DNA of 63,471 bases, the filler included, from Anaerolineae bacterium (GTDB lineage Bacteria; Chloroflexota; Anaerolineae; Epilineales; Epilineaceae): NCBI GenBank assembly GCA_029262755.1. It is 5 parts of 5 records of this genome, joined end to end, with 100 filler letters (N's around TTAATTAATTAA, not from the genome) between each part and the next. Parts side by side here need not be neighbours in the genome. Positions count along the whole stretch, not along the records: positions 13,577 to 26,273 come from JAJCYU010000193.1; 4 more parts are not named here. One strand, 5' to 3'. Each line of letters begins with the position of its first letter. Position 1 is the first letter of the stretch. The notes below the pieces were generated by a model, which saw only the letters and a program-made list of their open reading frames with translations, searched no databases and was not told the DNA's origin. Positions 13,477 through 60,493 of this stretch are shown here, one piece after another. The position numbers and the translations under genes are program-made.

Positions 13477-13576
13477 NNNNNNNNNNNNNNNNNNNNNNNN
13501 NNNNNNNNNNNNNNNNNNNNTTAATTAATTAANNNNNNNNNNNNNNNNNNNNNNNNNNNNNNNNNNNNNNNNNNNN
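13477..13576. other. Artificial contig-join linker
   Basis: N44-TTAATTAATTAA-N44, stops in all six frames. Confidence 0.98.
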
Positions 13577-13779
13577 TCGGCGTGCACGTGTGCGCTGTCC
13601 GATTCACCCACGTCCGCCTCGACGCGAGCGCCGGCCAATTCCGCGCCCAACGCCACCAGGATCGCGGCCTGCGAAGGTGCAGCCGCGGAACGAAGGGTGG
13701 TGAAGGCTTGTTTCAACGGCAGCACGTCCGTCGACGCCGGGGAAGCTTCGGGCGAAGGGTTCGGTTGCTCGGCTGCCAT
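13577..13779 (-). CDS. Hypothetical protein, N-terminal fragment only
   Basis: GGGAG then ATG at 13779 (MAAEQPNPSPE...), open into the gap. Confidence 0.5.
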
Positions 13780-14024
13780 GAGCGGCTCCCTGGATGGGCG
13801 CGAACCGAGGGGGACGGCCGCGTGTGAAGAGCCCGCACGTATGTGCTCGGGACCGGTCGCGAAGGTAGTGCCTCGACCCTTCCGGCGCAAGGGCAGCGGT
13901 GGCAAATCGGACCGGATTGGATCCCACCGTTGGCCACATATCCGCTAGGATCATGGGCCGCACGTGACCGTCCGACGATCATCCACGCGCGCGAGGCTCC
14001 CATAGCCGACGCGTAGGAGCCATC

Positions 14025-14546
14025 GTGAGCTATCCGCAAACGGCTGCATCCCAGCCGACAAGCGCCACCGGCCCTGCCCGCGCGGCCGTCGGCGACGTGG
14101 TCGAGCGCCTGGACACCGTGGATGCGATCGTGACGCGCTACGCCGTGATGAGCAGCCCGCTACGCCGGCGCCTGTACATCGGGCTCGGCGGCTTGTTTGT
14201 GCTCTTCGCCTTGATCGGCGTTTGGGTGCCCGGCTGGCCGACCGTCTCCTGGGCCGTGCCCGCCGCGTTCCTGTTTTCGATGTCGAGCGAGCGCCTGTTT
14301 CGGTGGTGCCTGACCAACCGCTTCTTCGGCGCCGCGCTCTTCGACTACTACGCGACGGGGCGTAGCCTCCCCCGGCACGTGAAGGGCATCATCCAGGCGA
14401 TCATCGCGCTCAGCTCCGGCCTATCGGCCTGGTTCGTGTTCCGCGTGTCATACCCCACCGACCCCGGATTCGGCCCCGCCACCATCGTGCTCGTCGGGCT
14501 GGTCGGCATCGCCTACGTCGGCACGCGCGTGCGCACGCGCGGCTAG
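14025..14546 (+). CDS. YbaN/DUF454 family membrane protein
   Basis: LIGVWVPGWPTVSWAVPAAFLFSMSSERL...NRFFG resembles the DUF454 GxxxPxxPT motif; AGGAG RBS. Confidence 0.8.
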   Translation: MSYPQTAASQPTSATGPARAAVGDVVERLDTVDAIVTRYAVMSSPLRRRLYIGLGGLFVLFALIGVWVPGWPTVSWAVPAAFLFSMSSERLFRWCLTNRFFGAALFDYYATGRSLPRHVKGIIQAIIALSSGLSAWFVFRVSYPTDPGFGPATIVLVGLVGIAYVGTRVRTRG

Positions 14547-14613
14547 CGCTAGCGGGTAGGCCCGGCCGGCCCGCGTTCGCGGTCGTGAGCTACGTTCAAC
14601 AGGCTGTCCACCC

Positions 14614-15030
14614 CTAAGGGTTCGTGGCCCTCATGTGCTCTACGGACGCCGTGACGAGCTCGCGCAACACATCACGATCGATGTCGTCGAGCCGCTTGAT
14701 GTACAGGCAGGACTTCCCGGTCTTGAATTTGCCCAGGCGCGCCATCAAGTCCTCGTAGCCGTCGAATCCGGCCATGATGTAGAGCGTCAGCTCCCGCTTG
14801 CGCGGCGCGAAGCCCGCCAACATCCAGTCTCCTTCGCGTCCGCTTTCGTAGCGGTAGTGGTAGGAGCCGAAACCGAGGATGCTCGGCCCCCAGAGTACGG
14901 CCGGCTCTCCGGTTACGTCCTCCATCAGAGACGAGATCTCGCGACAATCCGCCTGCTTGCGTTCGTCCTCAATGGCCGCAAGGAAGGCCTCCACATCGGC
15001 GCCGGTCGGTTTGGTTTTCAGGTCGGACAT
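14614..15030 (-). CDS. DUF1801 domain-containing protein
   Basis: WGPSILGFGSYHYRYESGREGDW, LGKFKTGKSCLYIKRL. Confidence 0.9.
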   Translation of the reverse strand: MSDLKTKPTGADVEAFLAAIEDERKQADCREISSLMEDVTGEPAVLWGPSILGFGSYHYRYESGREGDWMLAGFAPRKRELTLYIMAGFDGYEDLMARLGKFKTGKSCLYIKRLDDIDRDVLRELVTASVEHMRATNP

Positions 15031-15073
15031 GTCGGCGTTCTCCTGTGGATGATCGCAGGGCGAGACCCCGTCG

Positions 15074-16918
15074 CTACGTGGGTTGCGGGTCGGCGCGTCG
15101 TGACTCCGGCGGCTGGTAATCCGGAGACTGGTGGCGGAAGTACGTGTCGTAGAGTTCGGCATAATGGCCGCCACCGGCCATCAGCTGCTCGTGATCGCCC
15201 GTCTCGATGATGCGGCCGTCCGACACGACCAGGATCCGATCGGCGGCGCGCACGGTCGACAAGCGGTGGGCGATCACCACCGAGGTGCTCTCGCCCAAGA
15301 TCAGCTCGAGCGCCTCTTGGATCTGCGCTTCCGTGAACGGGTCGATCGACGCGGTCGCTTCGTCCAGGATAAAGATCGCGGGCTTTTGGACCAGCACGCG
15401 CATCAACGCCACGAGCTGTCGTTGGCCCATCGACAGGTCTCGGCCGCGTTCCCCGACGTCCGTGGCTATGCCGTCCGGCAGGGCGGCCAGCCATTCGCCG
15501 TCGCCGATGCGCCGCGCAACGGCGTAGATTTCCTCATCCGTTGCTTCGGGACGCGCATAGCGGATGTTCTCGGCGACCGTGCCGCTGAAGAGAAAAGGCG
15601 CTTGCGGCACAATGCCGAGCTTGCGCCGATAGTCACCGAGATCGAAGGTTCGAATGTCGTGCCCGTCCACCAGAATTCGGCCGGCTTGAAACTCGTAGAA
15701 GCGTGTCAGCAGGCGGGCGATGGATGACTTGCCCGCCCCCGTGTGCCCCACGAGCGCCACGCTCGTGCCGGCCGGCACATCCATGTTGAAGTCAGGCAAG
15801 ATCGGCTGATCGGCATCGTAGCCGAAGCGGAGCCCTTCGATCTCGATGTGGCCACGCAGCGGCGGCACGGGGTCGGTCGCACGCTGCACGACCGTCGGCT
15901 CTGCGTCGATCAGGGCGTAGATGCGCTCGATCGCCGCGAAGCCGACCTGGACCTGGCTCCAGAAGGCGGTGAGGTTCATCAAGGGGAACCAGAAGCGGTC
16001 GATGCCCTGCGTGAACAAGAACCAGGACGCCACGGTGATGGCGCCCGCGGCCACGGACTGCGCGCCCTGGTAGACGATGAGGCCTGTGCCGAGGCCGATC
16101 ACGATGTTCAGCACAGGGAACACCATCGAAAGCGTGAGGCCGCGCAGCAGGTTGATCCGATACGAGGCTCGGTTTACGGCCGCGAATTCCTCGTAGATCA
16201 CCGCCTCCTGCCGGTAGTTCTTGGCCACGGAGATCCCGGCAACGGTCTCTTGGATCTTGGCGTTCACATCCGCGCTGACGCGCGCCGCCTGGCGCGTGAC
16301 CTTGCGCGCGAGAATGCGGAACGCGAAGGCAAACACCAGGATCAAGGGCGCCATGGCCAGCACGAGCAAGGTCAGGCGGCCGGAGATGCCGACGAGCACG
16401 GCGGTGATGATCGCGACCTCGACGACCTGGGCCACGAGATCGGCCACCAACGTTATCGACTGGCCAAAGTCGTTCGTATCCGTCGTGATGCGGCTGATGA
16501 CGCGGCCGCGCGCGATACGGTCGTAGAAGGCCATATCGTGGCCGACGGCCGACTTGAAGGCATCTCGCCGCAGCGCGTAGATCACGTCCCCGATGAGGCG
16601 CGAGGTCGCCCTACGGCGAAGGAAGTTGCCGATCCAAACCAGGATCCATGCGGTGAAGAGGCCCGCGAGAAGCAACCACGGAAGCCGTGGAAGCCCGCCC
16701 GTGACCGGGGGCGCCAGGCGCAGCGCCTCGAGACGCCCAATTCCTGCCGCGAGCATGAGGGGAACGCCGGCCAGGAGAGCAGACACCGTCGCAACGCTGC
16801 CCACGATGAGCGCGACCCGGCCGCGGTACGGCGCGACGTAGCGTCCGACGCGGCGCAACAGGTCACGGTCCCGGTACTGCCGGTCGTAGGACTCGACGTC
16901 CAGGTTGTTGAAAATCAT
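15074..16918 (-). CDS. ABC exporter, fused permease/ATPase (heterodimer subunit)
   Basis: Transmembrane domain plus GHTGAGKS, degenerate signature LSMGQ, consensus LDEAT; ATGA overlap with the upstream gene. Confidence 0.95.
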
Positions 16919-18753
16919 GCGGCACCATCGCCGGAAGCGCCTCCCCAGTGGGCGAAGAGCCGACGGTAGGCCTTGCATGTTGCCAGCAACTCGTCGTGTG
17001 TACCGCTTGCCTCGACGGTGCCGCCCCGAAGGACGACAACGAGGTCGGCCCAGCGGATCTGCGAGAGCCGGTGGGTGATGAGGATCGTCGTGCGTCCCGC
17101 CGCCGCGCGTCCGATCGCGCGCTGGATGCGGTCTTCCGTGGCGCTGTCGATCGCGCTCGTGGAGTCGTCCAAGATCAAGATCCGTGGCTCCGATAACAGC
17201 GCACGCGCGATCGCGAGGCGCTGCCGCTGGCCGCCGGAGAGCGTCACGCCGCGCTCTCCGATTACGGTCTCATAGCCCTCCGGCAGCGCGGCGATAAACT
17301 CATGCGCCTGCGCCTCGCGCGCCGCGGTCTCGATCTCGGCCGGGGTCGCGTCGCTGCGCCCGAAGGCGATGTTGTCCGCAATGGAGCGCGAGAAGAGGAA
17401 GGGGTCCTGCTCGATCACCGCGATCTGCCGGCGAAGGCTGGCGAGATCCCACGCGCGCACATCCACACCGTCCACCAGCACGGCGCCATCGTCAACGTCA
17501 TAGGTTCGGTTGATCAGCCGCGTGAGCGTGGTCTTGCCGCTGCCGGTCTGCCCGACGATCGCCACCGTCTGCCCGGCCGCCACCGAGACGCTCACGTCAC
17601 GCAGGATCGGCTGATCGGGCCGATAGCCGAAGCGCAGGTTCTCGAAGCGAAGCTCCCCGTTCATGGGAGCCGCATATCCGCCCCGATTCTCATCGAGGGC
17701 CGTCTCGCGGTTCACCAGCTCCAAGATCCTGCGGGCGCTGGCCATGCCGAGCGAGACCTGCGCGTAGGAGAAGAGCGAAACGAAGGTCGGGAATCCGAAG
17801 AGCCCGAGCAGGCCCATGTACGCGACGACATCGCCGACCTCCAACGCGCTTCCCGGCGCGGCATAGAGCCAGCTCGCATGGGCGAATCCTGCGCTCGAGG
17901 CGAGCCCGAGGAGCAGCAATGGCAGGAAGCGCGCCTCGCGCTCGCCTTGCTCCTTGTAGGCATCGCGGTACGCCGCGGCACGGACGGCGAAGCGCTCCGT
18001 CTCGCGATCCTCCTGGGCGGCGCTCTTGACCACCTCGACGCCTTCGATCGCCTCGGCGAGGTGCGCGTTGAGTTCGCCGAAGGAGCCACGCACCGCGCGC
18101 GTCACGGGCGCGAGGCTCTGCAGGTAGTGCCGCAGCGCGAAGCCGTAGGCGACGATGAAACTGAGCGGCACGACGACCAGACGCGGATCGATGCGCCAGG
18201 AGAAGAAAACCGGGGCGACGAGAAAAAAGGCCGAACCGATGACGAGGTTGAGGCCGGGGTTGAACATCAAGTTCAGCTCGCGCACGTCGTTGGTGGCGCG
18301 CGCCATCGTGTCTCCCACCGGCTGGCGACCGTGAAAGGTCATCGATTTTCCGAGCAGGCTGCCGTAGAGCTCGTCGCGTACGTCGCGCTCCATACGCTGG
18401 CCGAAGACCTCGCTGCCGGCGTTGCGGGCCAACTGCAGTCCAGCGCGCACCAACTGCGACCAAAAGATCAGCCACGCGATGTCCGCCACGGCGCCCAAAT
18501 CCACGATTCCGTTCGCGGCGACGCCCTCTCCTACGGTATCGAAGGCCCGCCCGACCAACACGGGCACCATCCCTGCCAACGCCGCATTGCCCGCGGCACC
18601 GAGCAGGACAACGGGGATCAGCCAGCCTTGGCGCAGCACATGAGACAGGACCCAGCGACCGGCGCTTGCGCGGTTGGTACGGTAGGGCCGGTCGAGGACG
18701 AATTCAGCGTGGGTCAAGGCCAATATCCAATGGGGGGAGCGCGAGAACGGCAA
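16915..18753 (-). CDS. ABC exporter, fused permease/ATPase (heterodimer subunit)
   Basis: [13 protein letters not shown], Walker B LDDS (Asp in place of the catalytic Glu); start codon uncertain. Confidence 0.95.
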
Positions 18754-18833
18754 CCCTACATGCCTCCCTCAGGAGCGCCAATCCTACGTGAGGTGCCGGG
18801 GAACGCTTCGGGCGAAGGACCCCGTTGCACAAA

Positions 18834-18871
18834 CGCACGAAGGGGCCGCGGGTTCACGGCCCCTTCGTGCG
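18834..18871 (-). terminator. Intrinsic terminator downstream of tRNA-Sec
   Basis: Perfect 15-bp inverted repeat CGCACGAAGGGGCCG/CGGCCCCTTCGTGCG followed by TTTGT on the minus strand. Confidence 0.75.
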
Positions 18872-18878
18872 ATCTAGG

Positions 18879-18973
18879 CGGGGATGCATGGGAGTCGAAC
18901 CCACCAGCGCCGGCTAACGCCACCGCTCACCGATTTTGAAGACCGGGGAGGCCACCGGGCCCCATCCATCCCC
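18879..18973 (-). tRNA. selC: tRNA-Sec (anticodon UCA)
   Basis: 95 nt. GGGGATG/CATCCCC acceptor stem, 6-bp D stem with 4-nt loop, anticodon loop CTTCAAA, long variable arm, GTGGG-TTCGACT-CCCAT T arm, G discriminator. CCA not fully encoded. Confidence 0.95.
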
Positions 18974-19024
18974 TCGCGATTCTTCGATTCAGCCGCAACA
19001 GTAGCAGGGCCACGCAGTCATCAA

Positions 19025-19078
19025 TCACCGATTTTGAAGACCGGGGAGGCCACCGGGCCCCATCCATCCCCTCGCGAT
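19025..19078 (-). repeat. Exact 54-bp copy of the selC leader and 5' half (tRNA fragment)
   Basis: Identical to 18927-18980. Confidence 0.9.
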
Positions 19079-19130
19079 GTACTTTCCGGCTCCCTCGAAT
19101 ACTTCAAAGCGACCGGGTGCGTTTCATCAA

Positions 19131-20024
19131 CTACCGAGCCGCCGCCGCATCGGCCAACAGCCGATCGACCGTGCTATCCAACTCCGAGGCTTCACGATAG
19201 GCGCCGCGCTTGATGGAGGCCACTCGCCCGTCCGCCCCGATAAAGTATGTCGTGGGGAATGTCTTGATTCGGTAGATGTCGGCCGTGTCTCCCATCTCGT
19301 CGAGCAATACCGGCATCGTCATCCCCATTTCGACGACCCACGGCAGCACTTCGTCGTAGGATTCTTGCACGTCCACGGCCAACACGACGAGCCCGTCGGC
19401 CGCGTGCCGGTCGGCGATCGCCTGCAGAAAGGGCATCTCAACGCGACAGGGCACACACCAGGTTGCCCAGAAATTCACCACGACCGGCTGGCCGAGGAAG
19501 TCGGAGAGCGCAACCGGCTGCTCGTCGTCCAGTGAGCGCAACCGGAAGTCGGGTGCAGGCTCGCCGAGGCTCGCCGCGTCTCGTCGCACCAAGCCCGTCG
19601 AGAGCCCGCCGCTGTCGGTTCGCGTCCCGTTGGCCGCGCCGGCCGTCGCGCGCGCCACGACCGCGGCGGCCGTCGCGGCTTTGGCGTCCTCCGGTGCTGC
19701 CGCGTTCGTAGAATCGTTCTTCACGCCTTCCGATTGCGACGAGCCCAACCGGTCGAGACCCGCCGCCGAACCGTCGGCGCCGCGGCCGAGCAGGTATCCG
19801 CCGCCCAAGGCCAGCGCGACCACGAGGATCGCGGAGGCGAGCGCCGCGCGCAGCGTGGGACCACGCTGCGGGCTTGGGGCGGAGGAGGACGCATCGGCCG
19901 GAGCCGCCTCGGTGTCGGACACAGGTCCGACGTCGGCTGTGTCGGCCGGCTCGGCCACGTGCCGCCTGCCGTCGGCCACGCCCTCGTCGGCCACGCCCTC
20001 GTCGGGCTGCGCGACGTCGCTCAC
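19131..20024 (-). CDS. TlpA/ResA family membrane-anchored thiol-disulfide reductase
   Basis: Transmembrane anchor, APDFRL, VVVNFWATWCVPCRVEMP, FPTTYFIG; GTG start overlaps the upstream stop (GTGA). Confidence 0.9.
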   Translation of the reverse strand: MSDVAQPDEGVADEGVADGRRHVAEPADTADVGPVSDTEAAPADASSSAPSPQRGPTLRAALASAILVVALALGGGYLLGRGADGSAAGLDRLGSSQSEGVKNDSTNAAAPEDAKAATAAAVVARATAGAANGTRTDSGGLSTGLVRRDAASLGEPAPDFRLRSLDDEQPVALSDFLGQPVVVNFWATWCVPCRVEMPFLQAIADRHAADGLVVLAVDVQESYDEVLPWVVEMGMTMPVLLDEMGDTADIYRIKTFPTTYFIGADGRVASIKRGAYREASELDSTVDRLLADAAAAR

Positions 20025-20884
20025 GGAGCTGCGCCCGGTAGCGAATCCGGGTCGTAGAATTGGATGCGGATCGAGCTCGTCGCCCATTGGTTGTCGATCC
20101 ACTCGCGCACCACCTGGTCACGCTCCTCCTGCGGCCGACCATCCATGAGCTCCGACTGCACGAAGAAATCGAGCAGCTGGGTGCGCCGCAGGAAGTCCAT
20201 CAGGTGCGCGATCCCAACTCCGTTGGCGGCGAGCATATCGTCGAGCTGACGGCGATCAGCGCCGACCTTTCCCAAGAAATCGGCGAGCAACTCTTCGTTT
20301 GGGATCACGGGCATCTCAGCGGCCGTGCCGGCCGCTTCCGCAGCCTGCTCCATCAACATGACGTCGACTTGGCGCCGGAGAAGGTTGACTTGGAACAGGG
20401 CCATGCCGGGCCCGTCGTCATACGACGGAACAGGGTCACCCGCGAGCAGGCCCATCGCGCGCGATAGCCGCGCCGCTTCCTCGAGTTGGGCCATCGAGAA
20501 CGCGCGCACGCCCACCGAAGCGATCGTGGCGTCTCGGGGGAAGTCCGGATTGATCGGTGGCAGCTGGGCGGCGGTCAGATAGGCGTCGGCCGGCGGCGCG
20601 TTGCCGGCCAGCTCGGCTACGTTGCCGACATCGACCACCGCCGGAACCGATGGAGCGTTGGGATCCGCTGCGGACGGCACCGGTGCGCCGTAGCGGCTGA
20701 CCAACCATGAGGCCAAGCCCGCCAAGATCAGCAGCGCGCTGAAGGCTCCGGCAATTATCGCTAGCAGTCCGCTGTCGCGGCGTGATTCGGCGCTACGTCG
20801 CGGTGCCGGGCGCGACGAACGCGCGGCCGGCGTATCGACGGCGTCCAACTGTTTTTCCCGCACCTCGACCTTGAACAGCGGCAT
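20021..20884 (-). CDS. Membrane-anchored protein with SurA N-terminal-like helical domain
   Basis: Single transmembrane helix then IASVGVRAFS...LLRRQVDVMLMEQAAEAAG; resemblance only. Confidence 0.6.
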   Translation of the reverse strand: MPLFKVEVREKQLDAVDTPAARSSRPAPRRSAESRRDSGLLAIIAGAFSALLILAGLASWLVSRYGAPVPSAADPNAPSVPAVVDVGNVAELAGNAPPADAYLTAAQLPPINPDFPRDATIASVGVRAFSMAQLEEAARLSRAMGLLAGDPVPSYDDGPGMALFQVNLLRRQVDVMLMEQAAEAAGTAAEMPVIPNEELLADFLGKVGADRRQLDDMLAANGVGIAHLMDFLRRTQLLDFFVQSELMDGRPQEERDQVVREWIDNQWATSSIRIQFYDPDSLPGAAP

Positions 20885-21012
20885 GGCTTTGACTCCGCGT
20901 ACGTGTACGGATGGGCTGCTCGGCAGATTAATCCCGAGGCCGGCTGGACTGCCCATTGCGGCGCCCGTGCGCCGGAAGGCAAGGATAGTCGGGCCCGTTG
21001 GCCCTACAAAGG

Positions 21013-21047
21013 CAGGGGACCGGAGGCGCATGGCCTCCGGTCCCCTG
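21013..21047 (-). terminator. Intrinsic terminator of the double-VWA gene
   Basis: Perfect 15-bp inverted repeat CAGGGGACCGGAGGC/GCCTCCGGTCCCCTG followed by CCTTTGT on the minus strand. Confidence 0.75.
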
Positions 21048-21117
21048 TTCGTCCCTGGTGCTACTCAGCCCCCGCGCGCGTCAACCATCCGGCGTGGGGC
21101 TCACACCATGGCTCTGG

Positions 21118-23055
21118 CTACGGCGCGGTACGTCCGCGCACCGGGGGCCAGTCGCTGCCCCAATCGTGGCGTCCCTTCGGACACTGGAACACGTCCGCGA
21201 TCTCACCGTAGATGTCGGCCAGCTCGTCCGCCCGCGGCGTGATGAACGTACCGCCGTCGGCCGTCGCGCACTCCGCCAACAGCCACGGGTAGACCCAGTC
21301 GATGATGTCGTCGGACTGATCCTGCGTCTTGCCGAAGCCCACCGTGAAGATCCGGATGTCGGTCGCCGCCGCGGCCTTTGCCGCATCGATGACCGTCTCT
21401 TCCGGTCGGTTGGTGTCCGGATGGAACGGAACGCGGTTGGGCAGGCCGTCGGTCAGCATGATCATCACCGCCGTGTTGCCTACCTTGCGCACCGCCGGAT
21501 CCAGCGCCGTCGCACCCATCTGGAAGGCCTTGTCGAGGCGCGTGCCCTCCTGCTGGTACTGCGTGATGGTGTCGAGCGCGCCGATCACGTCGTCCTTCGC
21601 GTTGGTCAGCGACTGCGCGATGCCCGCGTCGTCGTTGAACCACACCACGCCGGCCTGGTCGTGCTGACCCTTGAAGTTCGGCGTGAAGTCCAGGCGATCC
21701 ACAAAGGCCTTCGCCGCGTCCACCACCGCCACCTTCTTGGCGATTCCGTCGTCTGACACACGGTCCATCGAGGTCGACATGTCGATCACGAAGACCACGT
21801 CCACCAGCTTCTCATCGATCGAGCATGCTTCCTTGACCGTGATCGGCAGGTAGATCGGGCCCGGCGTCGGCGTCGGGGTGTTGGTCGGGGTGTTCGTCGG
21901 GGTCACCGTCGGGCCGACCGTCGGTGTGTTGGTCGGGGTCGGCGGAGGCGGCGGCACCGTCGAGGTCGAGAGCGGCCGCGGGTTCAGCACGAGGATGTAG
22001 GGATCGCGGAAGTCGAACGTGCCCTTCCGGCTCTTGTTGTCGGTGAACTCGCCCCACGCACCGTTATTCGTCGGCCAGTGCCCGACCTCCTGCGGCTTCA
22101 CCTTGAAGCTGAAGGTCACGCCCTCGCGCGGCACGAACGAGGTCCGCCACTCAAGCTGGTCGTTGTTCGGACCCGTCGAGTTGGGTGCGGGCTCCGCACT
22201 GCCTTCCACGAGCACCATATTCGGCGGGAGGTTGTCGACCACCTTCAGGCTCTTGAGCAAGATGCTCTGAATCTGGCGGCGGATCTGCTCGAAGACGTTG
22301 GCCAGCTGGCTGGCCGAACGCGCCTCGAAGAAGTAGCGCGGGCTCGTCGCGACCTGGCGCATGCACTGCGCGTCGCAACTGGTGCCTACACAGACGGTGA
22401 TCAGCAGGATGCCCTGCGCCTTGACCTTGCCTGCAGCGGCCTGCACATTGCCGCAGCCCTGGTTGTCCTCACCGTCGGACAACACCACCATGACCTCGCG
22501 GATCGCGTCCGGATCGCCGATTCCCTGGCGGCCCTTCTGCAATACGCGCAGCCCAGCGTTGATGCCCTCGCCGATATTCGTTCCACCCGCCGCGCCGACG
22601 CGTCCGACACAGCCGCTGGCCGTACCGGAGCGGTTGGTCAGCTGGCAGAGGATCTTCGCGGCCGAGTTGAACATGACGACGCCGACCTGCGTGGCCGGGT
22701 TGTCCTTCATGTTCAGGCGCTGTACGAGCTGACGCGCCGCTTTCTTCATTTCGCGGTTCGGCTCACCGGCCATCGAGCCGGATCCGTCGAGCACGAGCAC
22801 GATGTGCAGCGGGAACTGCTCGCCCGCGCACAGCGCCGTAACGGTAAGGGTGATATCGACCGTCTCGCCCAACAGGATGACCTTGGGCGAGGCGTCCTTG
22901 CGGTTGACCGCAACACAGGACGACTCACCGCGACCCTGTGCGGCGGGCGCTTCGGCCGGCGCGGCTGAGACATTCGCCACACCAAGCACAACCAACGAAA
23001 TGCCAAGCACGGCAACGGCCATGGTGGCAGCAATCAAAGATCGGAATCGGCGCAT
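21118..23055 (-). CDS. Secreted protein with two VWA domains and an internal PT linker plus YLP motif
   Basis: GGAGG RBS, signal peptide, MIDAS motifs LDGSGSM and IDMSTSM, PTPTPGPIYLPITVK between the domains. Confidence 0.9.
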   Translation of the reverse strand: MRRFRSLIAATMAVAVLGISLVVLGVANVSAAPAEAPAAQGRGESSCVAVNRKDASPKVILLGETVDITLTVTALCAGEQFPLHIVLVLDGSGSMAGEPNREMKKAARQLVQRLNMKDNPATQVGVVMFNSAAKILCQLTNRSGTASGCVGRVGAAGGTNIGEGINAGLRVLQKGRQGIGDPDAIREVMVVLSDGEDNQGCGNVQAAAGKVKAQGILLITVCVGTSCDAQCMRQVATSPRYFFEARSASQLANVFEQIRRQIQSILLKSLKVVDNLPPNMVLVEGSAEPAPNSTGPNNDQLEWRTSFVPREGVTFSFKVKPQEVGHWPTNNGAWGEFTDNKSRKGTFDFRDPYILVLNPRPLSTSTVPPPPPTPTNTPTVGPTVTPTNTPTNTPTPTPGPIYLPITVKEACSIDEKLVDVVFVIDMSTSMDRVSDDGIAKKVAVVDAAKAFVDRLDFTPNFKGQHDQAGVVWFNDDAGIAQSLTNAKDDVIGALDTITQYQQEGTRLDKAFQMGATALDPAVRKVGNTAVMIMLTDGLPNRVPFHPDTNRPEETVIDAAKAAAATDIRIFTVGFGKTQDQSDDIIDWVYPWLLAECATADGGTFITPRADELADIYGEIADVFQCPKGRHDWGSDWPPVRGRTAP

Positions 23056-23267
23056 CGGTTTCGTTCCTCCGTGTCGGGCCCAGCCTGCGTGTGCTCTTGG
23101 GGAGCGTCGGCGAGGCCCGGCGAATTGTGGACTCATGCACCGATTCGGCGCATGCGGCCCGTGCGGTGCGACCGCCTCAAGCACCCCTATCAACACCCCA
23201 ACCTGTCTTCGCTGACACCCTGACGCGGACTTGGGTTTCACGCGCTCGATCTCCTGGATCGAGCGCT

Positions 23268-23321
23268 TTGACGTTCGCCTGACGTTCGGCTCGCGAGCCC
23301 TTGACGGGCACTCCGTACTCT
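23268..23321 (+). promoter_or_regulatory. SARP/BTAD-type activator direct repeats plus -10 box
   Basis: TTGACGT (23268), CTGACGT (23279), TTGACGG (23301), periods 11 and 22 bp; the last repeat lies 8 nt upstream of TACTCT (23316). Confidence 0.6.
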
Positions 23322-23453
23322 CCGCCCCAGTGGCGCATTCGCCGGTCGATCCGCGACTGCAGCGCCAGGAGCGAGACTCATGTTCGAGGGCAACTAGCAC
23401 GTCGTTTTCCATTCCTTTTCGATTTCGTACCCGGTCCTTTCAGGGAGGCAGTC

Positions 23454-23660
23454 ATGTCCACAAAGCGCAGCTGGCACGAGAGCTTCATGATCCGCATGTG
23501 GGCCGAGCCCGACGGCGGCGACCGCGTCCTTCGCGGCGCGATCCAAAACGTCCAGACGGGCCGCACGACGTATTTCGACTCCACCAACCTCCCGACAGCG
23601 CTCATCGAGCGCTCCGCGTCACGAATCGAAATCGCCCGCGAACGCGCAGGCGCCGCCTAG
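23454..23660 (+). CDS. Small hypothetical protein (SFxxRxW...RGxIxxVQTG type)
   Basis: GGAGG RBS; 68 aa MSTKRSWHESFMIRMWAEPDGGDRVLRGAIQNVQTGRTTYFDS... Confidence 0.7.
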   Translation: MSTKRSWHESFMIRMWAEPDGGDRVLRGAIQNVQTGRTTYFDSTNLPTALIERSASRIEIARERAGAA

Positions 23661-23757
23661 CGCCGCTCGCTCCTCTCATACCCCACGTCCAGATCGGGCC
23701 CGAGCGCCCATTCACCGGTTTCAACCCCGCAGTACCCTTCAAGGAGGTCGGCACCTC

Positions 23758-26273
23758 ATGAACGGCTTGTTCACCAACACGCTGTCCACCAGCACCCTGT
23801 CCACCCAAGTCCACCCGCTGCGACGTTTCGTCGCGATGCCCGCACGCATGGCCCTCTCGGCCTTGCTGCTCGCCGTCGCACTCGTTGCCCACGTCTCCGT
23901 CGCCTACGCGCAGTCGCCGGTTCCCGCACCGTCCTCGCCGGCCAAGCCGGCCATCGCGAGTCCCGAGGGCGCCAGCGCACAGGCCTTCATCCCGGTTCTC
24001 AACTACCTCGGTCAGGACGAGATCTGTGACTCCTGGGTCGAGGCGCAGAACATCGGCGCCGACTTCTCGGCCATGAGCCTCGTCGCCTTCGGCGCGCCTG
24101 GCTTCTGCGCTCCGCAGGCCGCCGGCCCGCTCAAGATCGAGTGCTCCGGTATCCTCAAGCCCGGCTCCGCCTGGAACTTCCTCGGCGCCCAGATCCCCAC
24201 CGGCGCCAAGTCCGCCCAGATCTTCAACTTCACCACCAAGACCCTCTCCGACATCGGCCTCGAGGACGTCCTCGGCTTCGACGACATCGTCTCCGAGTAC
24301 TTCTGTGAGAACGCCTTCTTCGGCCTCGTCGGTGACGCCGACGACTTCCGTCGCTTCAAGCTCGCCTACGACACCGCCGGCACCTTCGCGGGCATCCCGC
24401 TCGACCTCGCCTACGGCGGTCCCATCGCCGTCGAGGTCCTACGACGCTGCGCTTCGCCCGATTCGCCCGGCGTCATCACCTCCAAGTACAACGCGATCTC
24501 CGGCCGCCGTCTCGGTGTCTACGATCCCCTCTTCGGCGGCTTCACCCACTTCGTGCCCCTGCTCTACGCCTCGGCCGCCGGCTTCGAATCCGTCATGTAC
24601 ATCCAGAACGTCGGCCTCGAGTGCTCCACCGTCGAGATCTGGTTCCAGCAGCAGGACACCTGCCTGCGCGCCTCCATCTGCGAGGTCTTCACCCTCGCCA
24701 TGGGTGAGACCTACCAGTGGTCCGCCAGCGAGTGTGTCGGGCCCGGTTGGGTCGGCTCCGCATGGCTGCGCACCTCCCAGCCCATGGCCGTCACCATCGA
24801 CCACGTCGCACCCGGCCTGTTGATGACCTACACCGGCGCCTACGGCTTCCTGCGCTACGCTTTCGACGGCGAGTACACCTACAACCCCGGTTCCCAGGTG
24901 GCCTTCGGTCCCCTCGTCTACTCCGAGTACCAGGGCTGGGACTCCGGTGTCGTCGTACAGAACCTCTCCTCCACCGTCAACGCCAAGGTCAAGGTCTACT
25001 TCCTCGACCGCTCCGGCGACATCATCACCACCCTGGTCGACTGGGTCTGCCCCCGCGGCTCGCAGTCCTTCTACCTGCCCGCCATCGCGGATCTGCCCGG
25101 CAACTGGGTCGGCAGCCTCCGTGTCGAGAGCCAGGAATGGACCACCCCCGGTAGCCCCCTCGTCGAGGCGCCTCCCATCTCCGGCGTCGTCCAGCTCGTG
25201 AAGTACCCCGACATCCAGCGTCTCTCCACCAACGAGGCCATCGCCTACAACCTCCTCCAGGAATACGACGCCTACGACTGGCAGATCGGCAACGACGGCG
25301 GCGGTACCGTCTCCGGCACTTCCGTCCTGGCCATCCCCAGCCTCAACAAGGACCTCAACGCCACCGGCATCACCTCCGAGGTCGCCATCACCAACTTCAT
25401 CCCGGTCCCGGGCTTCACCGACTTCGCCATCTACATCTACGACGCGAACGGCCTGCTCGACTACGTCTGCCAGAAGCTCAACGAAAAGCAGGTTGAGTAC
25501 ATCGACCTCCAGACCTGGGGCTACATCAACAACGGCTTCAAGGGCTCGGCCATCGTCTCCGCCACCTACTGGCACCACCCCGTCTTCGACGCGGACGGCG
25601 ACTTCCTCCGCCACGTCGTCGGCCTCGGCGGTGTCACCATCGAGCGCAACGGCGCCGCGCTCCTCGCCGAGGACCTCCCCGGCGACGAAGCCTCCGGCTC
25701 CCTGGCCTTCCCGGTACACGAGTCCTTCATGTTCATGGGCCTCGAAGCCCCCAACTGCCCCGGCCTCACCCCGGCCGACCGGCCCAACGACTGCCCGCGC
25801 ATCATCGAGTTCCCCTCGGGTGACCTGAGACTGCCCATCATCGACAACACCACCACCGAGCACACCATCAACCTCACCCAGGGCCTCGGCCGACTCAACG
25901 AGACCTGCCAGATCACGGACGTCGACGTCCAACTCGCGGTGGTCCACACCGACATCGGCGACCTCACGGTCGAGTTGCGCCACGCCTTCGAGACCAACGC
26001 AGGCGGCCCCGCCCAGACCGACTCCCAGCTCCTGTCAGGCATCTGCGCCGGCTCCGGCACCCTGGTCACCGAACTCGACGACGACGCCACACGCCCCATC
26101 GGCTCGGTGTGCCCGCCCATCGGCGACATGTTCACCACCTTCGGCGGCCTCAACGTCTTCGACGGCGAGTACCCCGGCGACGACTGGACCCTCCGCATCA
26201 CCGACAACCTCCCCGGCGACAACGGCGAGCTCCGCAACTGGACCATCCAGGTAAGCACCGAGCCCATCCCGTA
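23758..26273 (+). CDS. Large secreted beta-repeat protein with C-terminal proprotein-convertase P domain; candidate S-layer/major surface protein
   Basis: AAGGAGG RBS, signal peptide (AYA-Q), four repeats of hydrophobic-P...S-x-x-x-x-[QT]N, P domain (ITDVDVQLAVVHTDIGDL...WTLRITD), extreme C-ending codon bias; ends at a probable TA(N) stop at the contig edge. Confidence 0.8.
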
Positions 26274-26373
26274 NNNNNNNNNNNNNNNNNNNNNNNNNNN
26301 NNNNNNNNNNNNNNNNNTTAATTAATTAANNNNNNNNNNNNNNNNNNNNNNNNNNNNNNNNNNNNNNNNNNNN
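26274..26373. other. Artificial contig-join linker
   Basis: N44-TTAATTAATTAA-N44. Confidence 0.98.
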
Positions 26374-40296: not shown

Positions 40297-40396
40297 NNNN
40301 NNNNNNNNNNNNNNNNNNNNNNNNNNNNNNNNNNNNNNNNTTAATTAATTAANNNNNNNNNNNNNNNNNNNNNNNNNNNNNNNNNNNNNNNNNNNN
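40297..40396. other. Artificial contig-join linker
   Basis: N44-TTAATTAATTAA-N44. Confidence 0.98.
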
Positions 40397-42216: not shown

Positions 42217-44112
42217 CTACCGAACCGCGAGCGGCAAGAACACGCGCGGGATCTCATCGAGGATGACCAGCTCGTAGGTCAGGCAGTAGCAACCGCTCGG
42301 GGAGTACGGCTCGCAGTCACGCTCGTTGTCGCGGTTGATGTTGAGATTGTTGACCGGACAAGCACGCAGCACCGTTCGGTGCTGATCACCGGCGGCCAAA
42401 CTTCCCGGCAACGCCTCGAAATTGATCGCAAGCTGCAGTTCCGAAGGCTGACCCGGCTGCTGCGCCAGCTGTTGATCGCTGATCCACGGCACGTCCTGAC
42501 GAATCTCCCACGTGCGATCGTTTAGCTTGTGGTTGGCGATGCGCATCGTGGCGGCCTTGTCATCACGCTTCACGTAGTGACGCAAGGTGCTCACTGGGAG
42601 ATCGATACGCCACGCCATGGTCTCGACGGCTCGCTCGAGGTTCGCGACCCCGCATCCGAGAAGGTCGTTTCGCTGGGGGGCGCCGATGAACGGACCTCCG
42701 CGCGAGCGGGACGCTGTGTTGCACAGCTGAGACTCGACCTGGAGGGGGCTCATCGAAGGGTTCGCCGACCAGAGTAAGGCCGCAGCGCCGGCGATATGGG
42801 CCGCCGCGAAATCACTGGGTTGGGGATGCAATGGCCCCACCGACTGCATATCGGAGTAATTCTCCGAGTTGACCGTCGTCCAAAGGGTCTCGCCCGGGGC
42901 GGCGATATCGACCCAACTGCCGGTACTCGCATCCACTCGCGATGCGTACTCCGGACTGATGGAGGCCACCGCCACGACGCGATCGAGCGCGCCCGGTAGC
43001 AACGCCGGGTTGGCGCCGTAATCCTCTTCCGAGGGACACACGCCGCGGTTGCGATCGTGCAACTGTCCACACTCGCCGGTCGGGGCGACGACAAACACGC
43101 CCTGTTGGGCTGCGTGTTGGACGGCCGCTCGCAGGCTGCCGATGGAACCGAACCACTGCTCTTCGAAATTTGGGTCGCGCAGGATCAGACCACCCATCAG
43201 GATGATCCGCGCCCCGTTGTTCGTCGCGTAGCAGATCGATTCGACCAAGTTGCGGGTATAGCTCGCAGGCACTACGCGTTCGTTGCCCTCTGCGTCCGAC
43301 AACGTATAGGGGAACATCGCCTGAAGAGGCATGATACGCGCGCCCCACGAGACACCCGCAATGCCGTACTTGTTATTCGTCTCAGCCGCGGCGATGCCGG
43401 CCATCATGGTGCCGCGGTTGCCGGTGCTCACGGTACGCCGTGGCCCCATGGAGATCGGCGATGGGTCGTTGTCGAAGCTGCCGAAGTCCCAGCCGTAGAT
43501 GTCGTCGACGTAGCCGTTTCGGTCGTCGTCGATGCCGTTGGCCGGAATCTCGTTGAGATTGCGCCAAATCTTGCTGGCCAGATCACGATGTTGCAGGTCC
43601 ACGCCATCGCTGATGACCGCGATCGTGACGTCCGAAGAGCCGAACGTAATCTGCCATGCTTCATGTGCGCTGAGGATGGCGCGCAGGTTTTCGGTCTGTC
43701 CGGTCCGAAAGAACGTGTCGTTCGGACGGGTTGCAAGCTGGTTCAGTTCATCCACGCCCGCGAGTTCCGCACCGTCAACCGTCGCGGAGCCACGCTCGAC
43801 CGCGCTCGCCATCTGCGCGCTGAACGCCGCTGCTCCATACTCGTCGTGAATATCTGGCACGCCGAACACCCGCGGGACCGCGGCCGGGAAGCGCATCGCG
43901 GCATCCACCGAGGAAGAGGAGCCATTGTCGAAGGTGGGAACGCGCAGTGCGGGCTGTAACCGGCCGAGCCATTCCGCGCCGCATACGCCGTTGCGACCGC
44001 CTGCTTGCGCGTGCACGGATGCGGGTTCGGTCATGGGGGGCTGCAAGCCGATCCCCGTAAGGATCAGCGCGGCAACGAGCCAGCGGGTGGATGTGATTCC
44101 GGGGTTGGGCAT
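42217..44112 (-). CDS. Secreted S8 subtilase homologue with substituted catalytic residues; C-terminal FLP motif
   Basis: Signal peptide, NGIDDDRNGYVDDIYGWDF, GIAGVSWGARIMPL, VDIAAPG; ends RVFLPLAVR. Confidence 0.85.
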   Translation of the reverse strand: MPNPGITSTRWLVAALILTGIGLQPPMTEPASVHAQAGGRNGVCGAEWLGRLQPALRVPTFDNGSSSSVDAAMRFPAAVPRVFGVPDIHDEYGAAAFSAQMASAVERGSATVDGAELAGVDELNQLATRPNDTFFRTGQTENLRAILSAHEAWQITFGSSDVTIAVISDGVDLQHRDLASKIWRNLNEIPANGIDDDRNGYVDDIYGWDFGSFDNDPSPISMGPRRTVSTGNRGTMMAGIAAAETNNKYGIAGVSWGARIMPLQAMFPYTLSDAEGNERVVPASYTRNLVESICYATNNGARIILMGGLILRDPNFEEQWFGSIGSLRAAVQHAAQQGVFVVAPTGECGQLHDRNRGVCPSEEDYGANPALLPGALDRVVAVASISPEYASRVDASTGSWVDIAAPGETLWTTVNSENYSDMQSVGPLHPQPSDFAAAHIAGAAALLWSANPSMSPLQVESQLCNTASRSRGGPFIGAPQRNDLLGCGVANLERAVETMAWRIDLPVSTLRHYVKRDDKAATMRIANHKLNDRTWEIRQDVPWISDQQLAQQPGQPSELQLAINFEALPGSLAAGDQHRTVLRACPVNNLNINRDNERDCEPYSPSGCYCLTYELVILDEIPRVFLPLAVR

Positions 44113-44267
44113 TGCCGTCCATCCTCCATCAGTCGCGAAATCGGCAAGATCCGACCGCCGACCGACATGTCGCAATGGGCACCCCCCGGCACCCATCGCT
44201 CGTGCATCCCTCTCCCCCGTTCTGAGACGTCCTTCAGCGGCTTAGGATACGGGCAAACACGCCCGAG

Positions 44268-60393: not shown

Positions 60394-60493
60394 NNNNNNN
60401 NNNNNNNNNNNNNNNNNNNNNNNNNNNNNNNNNNNNNTTAATTAATTAANNNNNNNNNNNNNNNNNNNNNNNNNNNNNNNNNNNNNNNNNNNN
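60394..60493. other. Artificial contig-join linker
   Basis: N44-TTAATTAATTAA-N44. Confidence 0.98.

Follow-up and report, generated by a model that had tools for sequence, protein, structure and literature searches.

A four-domain ASRAH-like module in a family of secreted Chloroflexi proteins and its possible role in envelope attachment

The subject of this analysis is a gene encoding a secreted protein of 838 amino acids (aa) in an Anaerolineae bacterium (GenBank assembly GCA_029262755.1). Structural modeling indicates that the core of the protein (residues ~72-670) is a set of four tandem beta-sandwiches of the ASRAH (ASRT/TM1070-like) type, and the same module forms the C-terminal end of other secreted proteins of this genome, some of them giant. 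In our preferred, though tentative, reading, the ASRAH tetrad serves for attachment: it would bind a glycan and so retain secreted proteins at the cell wall or sheath. The window analyzed here, 63,471 bases in all, consists of five contigs (C192, C193, C195, C196 and C202) of one metagenome-assembled genome (MAG), artificially joined; the MAG itself comprises 428 contigs and 5.06 Mb and is 84% complete. Contig C193 (window 13577-26273) carries the gene at its 3' end.

Architecture and fold of the 838-residue protein

The features of the gene and of its product, with the domains abbreviated D1 to D4, are as follows.

23741..23747, plus strand: Shine-Dalgarno sequence AAGGAGG, 10 nt upstream of the ATG, read directly
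23758..26272, plus strand: complete coding sequence (CDS), 838 aa (P0001), from an open reading frame (ORF) call; stop codon cut by the contig end at 26273
23758..23910, plus strand: long signal peptide, residues 1-51, with RR in the n-region, hydrophobic core ALSALLLAVALVA and an AYA/Q cleavage motif
23971..24501, plus strand: D1, residues 72-248, beta-sandwich with a helical insert at ~169-205; lead strand AFIPVLNY, strand 2 ending in QN98
24502..24855, plus strand: D2, residues 249-366, ASRAH/ASRT-fold sandwich, structural match to 1nc7
24883..25272, plus strand: D3, residues 376-505, repeat of D2 (hhalign), with an internal FYLPAI strand at 438-443
25309..25737, plus strand: D4, residues 518-660, a more divergent copy of this sandwich (hhalign)
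25798..26265, plus strand: P domain, residues 681-836, C-terminal jelly-roll with Pfam and furin matches and no catalytic domain

The signal peptide was judged by eye from the translation, without a predictor. The AlphaFold2 (AF2) model, which was built with 75 homologs and whose strands were assigned by DSSP, places a helix at residues 27-44 with low predicted local distance difference test (pLDDT) scores on both sides. Across the whole chain the model reaches a pLDDT of 84.8 and a predicted template modeling (pTM) score of 0.75. Folded alone, the core (residues 61-680) reaches 85.0 and 0.88 and is all-beta, with four sandwich-sized blocks; a pTM this high argues for one compact, fixed four-domain unit, not beads on a string. 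Profile alignment with hhalign relates three of the blocks to one another: D2 and D3 align over 102 columns (probability 94.7%, E 5.9e-8), and D4 aligns with D3 over 69 columns (E 6.4e-4) and with D2 over 74 (E 3.1e-3), in both cases in register on a P...N hairpin. The alignment of D1 with D3 was not significant (E 0.11). An initial annotation of this gene had described a repeat-built beta-sandwich protein of the envelope, a description that agrees with the four modeled blocks and with the homology among D2, D3 and D4. The nine motifs it quoted are all present (residues 76-83, 91-98, 264-270, 275-284, 382-388, 393-402, 524-531, 539-546 and 438-443), as is the AAGGAGG ribosome-binding site.

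It had also placed a P domain, with no protease, at the end of the protein, and we reach the same conclusion. Residues 681-836 superimpose on furin (4omc_A; Z 14.4, root-mean-square deviation [rmsd] 2.6 Å over 122 residues) and on the Aeromonas protease ASP (3wqb_A; Z 11.3). The Pfam model PF01483 matches residues 798-831 with 24.2 bits (cut-off 21; E 3.7e-5), a partial match to profile positions 52-85 of 86. Neither Peptidase_S8 nor any other Pfam family was found in the 838-aa protein at E<=1.

The ASRAH superfamily was defined by De Souza, Iyer and Aravind in 2009 from the sensory rhodopsin transducer of Anabaena (ASRT) and the Thermotoga protein TM1070 (PMC2739507). As defined in that paper, the fold is an eight-stranded sandwich in which strand 1 begins with a conserved aromatic (Trp, preceded by a polar residue) and strand 2 is closed by a near-invariant Asn that fixes the turn. 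Extracellular versions are described there as tetrads on Chloroflexi N-acetylmuramoyl-L-alanine amidases and as dyads in an actinobacterial lipoprotein, and are predicted to bind sugars or peptidoglycan; TM1070 is a tetramer (PMC2739507).

D2 matches TM1070 (1nc7) with a Z score of 13.6 and an rmsd of 2.5 Å over 105 of 116 residues, far ahead of unrelated structures, the next of which score Z 6-7. A second search gave Z 13.7 with the next row at 6.2, and Foldseek returned a probability of 1.0 and a template modeling (TM) score, TMt, of 0.73. ASRT itself (2ii7) matches D2 with Z 9.6. The hallmark Asn at the end of strand 2 is present in each domain: N284, N402 and N546 occur in all 75 homologs and N98 in 56 of them, and the modeled strands end at these residues (88-98, 276-284, 394-402 and 538-546). 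Strand 1 carries a conserved Pro (P79 in 71, P267 in 75, P385 in 72 and P527 in 75 of the 75). The aromatic position ahead of it has no Trp: column 77 is H in 40, A in 23 and F in six homologs, column 265 is Y in 59 and F in 12, column 383 is Y in 39 and F in 35, and D4 has Ala. The pattern of a lead strand followed by QN is the normal first hairpin of an ASRAH/ASRT sandwich (PMC2739507). The four tandem domains form a tetrad packed as one unit. Given that no hidden Markov model (HMM) link to PF07100 (ASRT), to PF18986 (DUF5719) or to the PDB was found, it is fold, hallmark Asn and tetrad architecture that assign the core to ASRAH.

Family, distribution and attachment to the cell surface

At least 320 homologs came up in a sequence search with a limit of E<=1e-3. 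Among the matches listed, all are hypothetical proteins with no functional name, and the named sources are Chloroflexi MAGs (Ardenticatenales, Anaerolineae and Caldilineae), apart from one labeled Acidobacteria; the closest named relatives come from MAGs labeled Ardenticatenales or Anaerolineae. The homologs consist of a core of ~600 aa plus variable add-ons, which include the P domain, a lamin-tail domain (LTD) and DUF11. All 35 genomes of the order carry the module, with 3-30 matches each and 50-73% identity across genera. In a sample of the phylum, 10 of 401 genomes have a match, three of them from the protein's own family and seven partial.

For the genome itself we used a reference set of 3000 heuristic ORFs picked from 10,928 (at least 150 aa, with G+C content falling from the third codon position [GC3] to the first [GC1] to the second [GC2]). 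Twenty-six ORFs of this set other than our gene match the module, and 15 cover nearly all of it. Nine of these 15 paralogs, themselves ranging from 669 to 11,549 aa, have the end of the module no more than 20 residues from their C-terminus; three of the 15 carry a P domain after it, and three have other tails. Giant secreted proteins with the module as their last ~600 residues are encoded on C209 (11,549 aa), C108 (4860 aa), C44 (4808 aa) and C384 (3090 aa). The C209 ORF takes up ~34.6 kb of a 38.3-kb contig and is probably truncated on the 5' side. One C-terminal-module paralog was scanned against Pfam and contains DUF11-type repeats. The complete giant members start with a cleavable signal peptide and have no lipobox, which leaves the shared C-terminal module as their only common candidate anchor. 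The genome encodes two or three sortases, and the S-layer homology (SLH) model PF00395 has no match in this 84%-complete assembly.

These observations can be joined in the following mechanism. The 838-aa protein would be exported by Sec to the envelope, where the ASRAH tetrad would bind a glycan of the cell wall or sheath and so hold secreted proteins on the surface. In this order the module, which is lineage-specific, sits at or close to the C-terminal end of numerous secreted proteins, giant adhesin-like ones with DUF11 repeats among them. On this view the 838-aa protein would be one of the short members, probably well expressed, with nothing on display but a P domain. The grounds for attachment are that one C-terminal unit is common to many otherwise variable surface proteins and that the fold is tied by context to Chloroflexi enzymes acting on peptidoglycan (PMC2739507).

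Several points weigh against this reading. Proteins with the module and nothing to anchor exist (the 669-aa product on C284 and many homologs of 620-660 aa), which suggests an independent function for the module, for example as a lattice or a lectin, and at the C-terminus of a giant adhesin it could be a ligand-binding tip instead of an anchor. The structural match to ASRAH is to D2 only, with D3 and D4 tied to it through sequence homology; in a structure search with the whole model, for which D1, D3 and D4 were not queried singly, only generic sandwich rows (Z 5-7) appeared beyond the P domain and D2. Neither PF07100 nor PF18986 matches the 838-aa protein at E<=1 (genome-wide, PF07100 has no matches and PF18986 has five, none in this gene), NCBIfam has no match for it, and PDB sequence profiles found no chain for the whole protein (E<=1) or for D2 (E<=10). 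The H and C of the ASRT ligand-pocket motif SHEshChhN are absent; the other extracellular ASRAH families are also without them (PMC2739507). In addition, a search for RNA runs found none containing the gene.

The family dominates the predicted surface proteome of one filamentous Chloroflexi order, whose envelope is poorly understood. The analysis offers a fold and a testable role for a large unnamed family for which, appended domains aside, there is no Pfam or NCBIfam model, and it carries the ASRAH superfamily beyond wall amidases and actinobacterial lipoproteins, to giant adhesin-like proteins that have it at their C-terminus.

Codon usage and alternative roles of the module

The gene is one of the most codon-biased in the reference set. 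C occupies 0.718 of its third positions (C3), and GC3 is 0.926. At four-fold sites the share of C (C4) reaches 0.762, where the genome averages 0.445 (standard deviation 0.066), which places the gene at rank 2 of 3000. Its effective number of codons (Nc) is 27.2, rank 4 of 3000, where GC3 alone predicts 36.5. A single codon is used for Phe (41/41), Tyr (30/30), His (11/11), Asn (34/34), Ile (48/48) and Lys (14/14), and GGG, GGA and CGG are nearly absent. The seven other ORFs of C193 have C3 values of 0.40-0.57. The strong skew relative to the neighbors was correctly noted in the initial annotation, whose statement that almost all codons end in C overstates a figure of 72%.

With 21 ribosomal and elongation factor (EF) ORFs as reference, the codon adaptation index (CAI) of the gene is 0.823, the 97.4th percentile; ribosomal ORFs mostly score 0.66-0.72. 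In the ribosomal set only rplB and EF-Tu/EF-G were identified by models, and the rest were named from operon order and recognizable sequence. An average CAI had been named as evidence against great abundance, and the value found is well above average; abundance itself does not follow from it, as the ribosomal genes lack the C bias. C4 is ordinary or low (0.28-0.46) in 12 ribosomal ORFs of the S10/spc operon contig, in EF-G and in two EF-Tu fragments, and on these values we rejected the idea that the bias of the gene is a ribosomal-gene bias. The idea that genes with the highest C4 are a highly expressed set was likewise rejected, the top 20 including a Tn3 transposase, an IstB-like ATPase, a flavodoxin, an HU-like protein and seven ORFs with no family. 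ORFs that we take, from sequence motifs, to encode GroEL, DnaK and ATP synthase are shifted like the gene, as is L7/L12 (C4 0.53-0.62, GC3 0.87-0.93). The C-rich mRNA of the gene has weak predicted folding, with a z score of +3.4 relative to 120 GC-matched genes.

The family supplies three of the four ORFs with the lowest Nc in the genome: those on C193 and C142 (1334 aa) are C-biased and the one on C187 is G-biased. The C187 paralog, a 445-aa fragment, has the lowest Nc of all, with G-ending codons (C4 0.27, and a G share at four-fold sites [G4] of 0.66). Members of the family in the same genome differ in the direction of their third-base preference, which a single tRNA-driven preference cannot explain. 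Codon usage is ordinary in most paralogs of the same genome, and the closest relatives (72-73% identity) show no codon bias. Of 25 loci in other genomes, only 6 have a best family member that is ahead of every neighbor by at least 0.05 in GC3, and only 6 have one ahead by at least 0.1 in C4; the direction of the bias differs among genomes (C4 0.81 in one, G4 0.71 in another). With the codon evidence mixed, high abundance of the 838-aa protein is plausible but unproven.

The main rival of the attachment module is an S-layer or sheath protomer, the central idea of the initial annotation minus its strand swap. Here the four-sandwich tile would self-assemble, the module alone or with a P domain would form the bulk of the lattice, and the giants would insert via the same module. 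We consider this possible but on balance unlikely; the two readings are compatible. The extreme codon usage and high CAI, the similar shift in putative GroEL, DnaK, ATP synthase and L7/L12, and the weak mRNA folding would suit a bulk structural protein. Module-only and module-plus-P forms are common, the core is compact, and no SLH match was found in the genome; TM1070 being a tetramer, the fold is able to oligomerize edge-on (PMC2739507). However, the C bias is not shared by ribosomal genes, the equally low Nc of the C187 paralog comes with G-ending codons and does not fit tRNA-driven selection, and elsewhere the family gene stands out from its neighbors in just the 6 of 25 loci, with the closest relatives unbiased. 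Pfam shows no known S-layer anchoring or lattice domain in the 838-aa protein, where the P domain is the sole match, and a literature search on the S-layer of Ardenticatena returned nothing relevant by title or abstract.

As an alternative to both, the ASRAH tetrad might be the distal tip of the giants, a lectin or adhesin head that binds external polysaccharides of a substrate, a biofilm matrix or neighboring filaments, with attachment to the cell by other means. The predicted sugar binding of the ASRAH fold (PMC2739507) is consistent with such a role, and the P domain and the other variable additions at the C-terminus (LTD, DUF11) look like binding modules. The best DNA match is to a biofilm metagenome, a weak point given that this run could be the source sample. 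However, the complete giants show no other anchor: they have a cleavable signal peptide and neither a lipobox nor another shared anchor, and this makes a lectin tip less likely. The conservation of the module across genera is also far above that of typical ligand-binding tips, and we regard this role as improbable.

C-terminal tags, gene surroundings and known systems

The initial annotation further proposed that the lead strands of the module resemble free YLP-like tags on other proteins, and that donor-strand complementation could explain both lattice assembly and cargo display. The tags hold up: a loose motif has 48 matches within 25 residues of a C-terminus where 8.7 are expected. After removal of six judged false (membrane proteins or unrelated matches), 42 tagged proteins remain, with the consensus [IVL][YFH]LP[LIMA][ALV]xR. 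The tags lie 1-16 residues from the end, with a median of four residues after the 6-mer, and are usually preceded by a Pro/Thr-rich linker and followed by no transmembrane segment. Extracytoplasmic-type Pfam domains occur in 15 of the 20 tagged proteins scanned (two S8, an M14, a C25, three FG-GAP, a PhoD, a beta-lactamase fold and others). One tagged protein, a subtilase, is encoded in the window itself (listed below). NCBIfam sorting-signal models matched none of 12 tagged proteins scanned, and a literature search found no description of the tag, its pentapeptides matching chemical names only. Tags were seen in two other genomes of the order; in a comparison limited to a small sample, two or three tags turned up among 274 ORFs from a genome with the module and none among 540 ORFs from one without it. 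The same motif also occurs internally in about a dozen other proteins, as a linker, IYLP..xE.C and then a VWA domain. Enrichment of TAG stops in tagged genes was considered and dismissed (26 of 41, unremarkable against 47% TAG genome-wide), as was read-through or frameshifting behind the tags, since no consistent open frame lies downstream.

It is very doubtful that the module, or a lattice built from it, takes up the free IYLPLAxR tags of the ~42 secreted proteins as an extra beta-strand and thereby presents these proteins as cargo. The excess of tags over expectation, the extracytoplasmic-type domains of most tagged proteins scanned and the recurrence of tags in two other genomes of the order are in keeping with it, as is the resemblance of the tags to the first strand of the module (Q-V-H-L-P-I-L), which is conserved in paralogs. 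The structure speaks against it. D2 covers 105 of the 116 residues of TM1070, a self-contained single-domain protein, starting from its first residues, and therefore uses its own lead strand as a complete ASRAH domain. The lead strands of all four domains are modeled in place as strands, with block pLDDT values of 85-96, and the structure check for a domain lacking its first strand found D2 complete and none lacking there. Moreover, the motif also precedes VWA domains internally, which means that it is not specific to the module, and the evidence of co-occurrence is thin. A broader version, to which we give only a slim chance, is an order-specific display system in which an eight-residue tag mimics the first strand of the module and is captured, by beta-strand addition or after processing by some enzyme, on a layer built or anchored by the module, with the 838-aa protein as its abundant base unit. 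Whatever its mechanism, the C-terminal tag on ~42 secreted proteins is the most interesting lead of this analysis, a candidate tag on proteases, phosphatases and repeat proteins.

Other features of the window are the following.

42220-44196 (= C196:1824-3800), minus strand: S8 subtilase, 659 aa, ending in ...VFLPLAVR; tagged protein in the window
21118-23412, minus strand: protein with two VWA domains, 764 aa, divergent neighbor of the gene; a PTNTPT linker and then GPIYLPITVKEAC lie between its VWA domains
13477-13576, 26274-26373, 40297-40396 and 60394-60493: artificial contig joins, N runs around ttaattaattaa, read from the sequence

As the window consists of joined contigs, genes across a spacer are not neighbors, and the true neighbors of the gene are the upstream ones only; the sequence past 26373 belongs to another contig. 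Upstream on C193 lie the divergent two-VWA protein, a thioredoxin-fold protein, two ABC exporters, and DUF1801 and DUF454 proteins. The end first assigned to the gene, 26273, is the end of the contig and falls inside the stop codon ('TA' and then N); the CDS itself runs from 23758 to 26272. Contigs C46 and C32 both open with the last 141 nt of C193 and have TAA or TAG directly after ...EPIP, so the 838-aa protein is complete. C46:1-562 and C32:1-554 are 91.7% identical over ~560 nt and then diverge, so that either could follow the gene downstream, and their shared starts suggest strain variants or a duplicated 3' end of the gene. Just 3' of the stop codon lies a GC-rich inverted repeat, GCCGGCCCGGG ... 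CCCGGGCCGGC, possibly a terminator or a stabilizing hairpin.

Among known systems, the chaperone-usher pilins would be the model for strand addition. The CfaB fusions 3f85 and 3f83 appear only as weak whole-chain Foldseek rows that pair strings of sandwiches (TM 0.07-0.14, rmsd ~36 Å), and the likeness goes no further: no incomplete Ig fold was found here, D2 is complete, and there is no usher or chaperone context. The proprotein convertases and subtilases (furin, Kex2, Aeromonas ASP) share the P-domain jelly-roll with the C-terminal 155 residues of our protein; in those enzymes a catalytic S8 domain precedes the P domain, whereas here it is appended without one.

The closest relationship is to the ASRAH superfamily (2II7, 1NC7, PF07100), with which (PMC2739507) the protein has in common the fold, the strand-2 Asn, the tetrad, secretion and the phylum. 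It differs in the helical insert of D1, in having Y, F or H and then Pro in strand 1 in place of Trp, and in the lack of a PF07100 match. The Chloroflexi tetrads described there are attached to an amidase (PMC2739507), whereas the module here stands at the C-terminus of giants, alone, or with a P domain, and its family is strongly expanded, at 3-30 matches per genome.

DUF5719 (PF18986) is presumably the two-ASRAH actinobacterial cell-surface lipoprotein mentioned in that source (PMC2739507). It has a dyad and a lipobox where the 838-aa protein has a tetrad and a cleavable signal peptide. Its language-model features resemble those of D2-D3: with these domains as query, DUF5719 was present in 7 of the 30 clusters that have names (score 0.96), and a single cluster had both DUF5719 and ASRT (0.95), a lead only. 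A 768-aa protein of the genome (C71:11993-14296) has both a DUF5719 Pfam match and a C-terminal IYLPLARHDAP tag. Its DUF5719 region aligns with D2 with the hairpins in register, a weak match (hhalign E 0.0076, probability 5%). A literature search for DUF5719 by name returned nothing.

SLH domains and the CWB2 triplets of Clostridioides difficile cell-wall proteins are shared wall-anchoring modules of Gram-positive surface proteomes. By analogy, the arrangement proposed here would be similar, with one conserved module across paralogous surface proteins that have variable parts and include the most abundant one. The folds are unrelated, and the present module, of ~600 aa and four sandwiches, is much larger and only predicted to bind a wall polymer. 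If it does serve as a wall anchor, it would be a new module with a function equivalent to that of SLH and CWB2.

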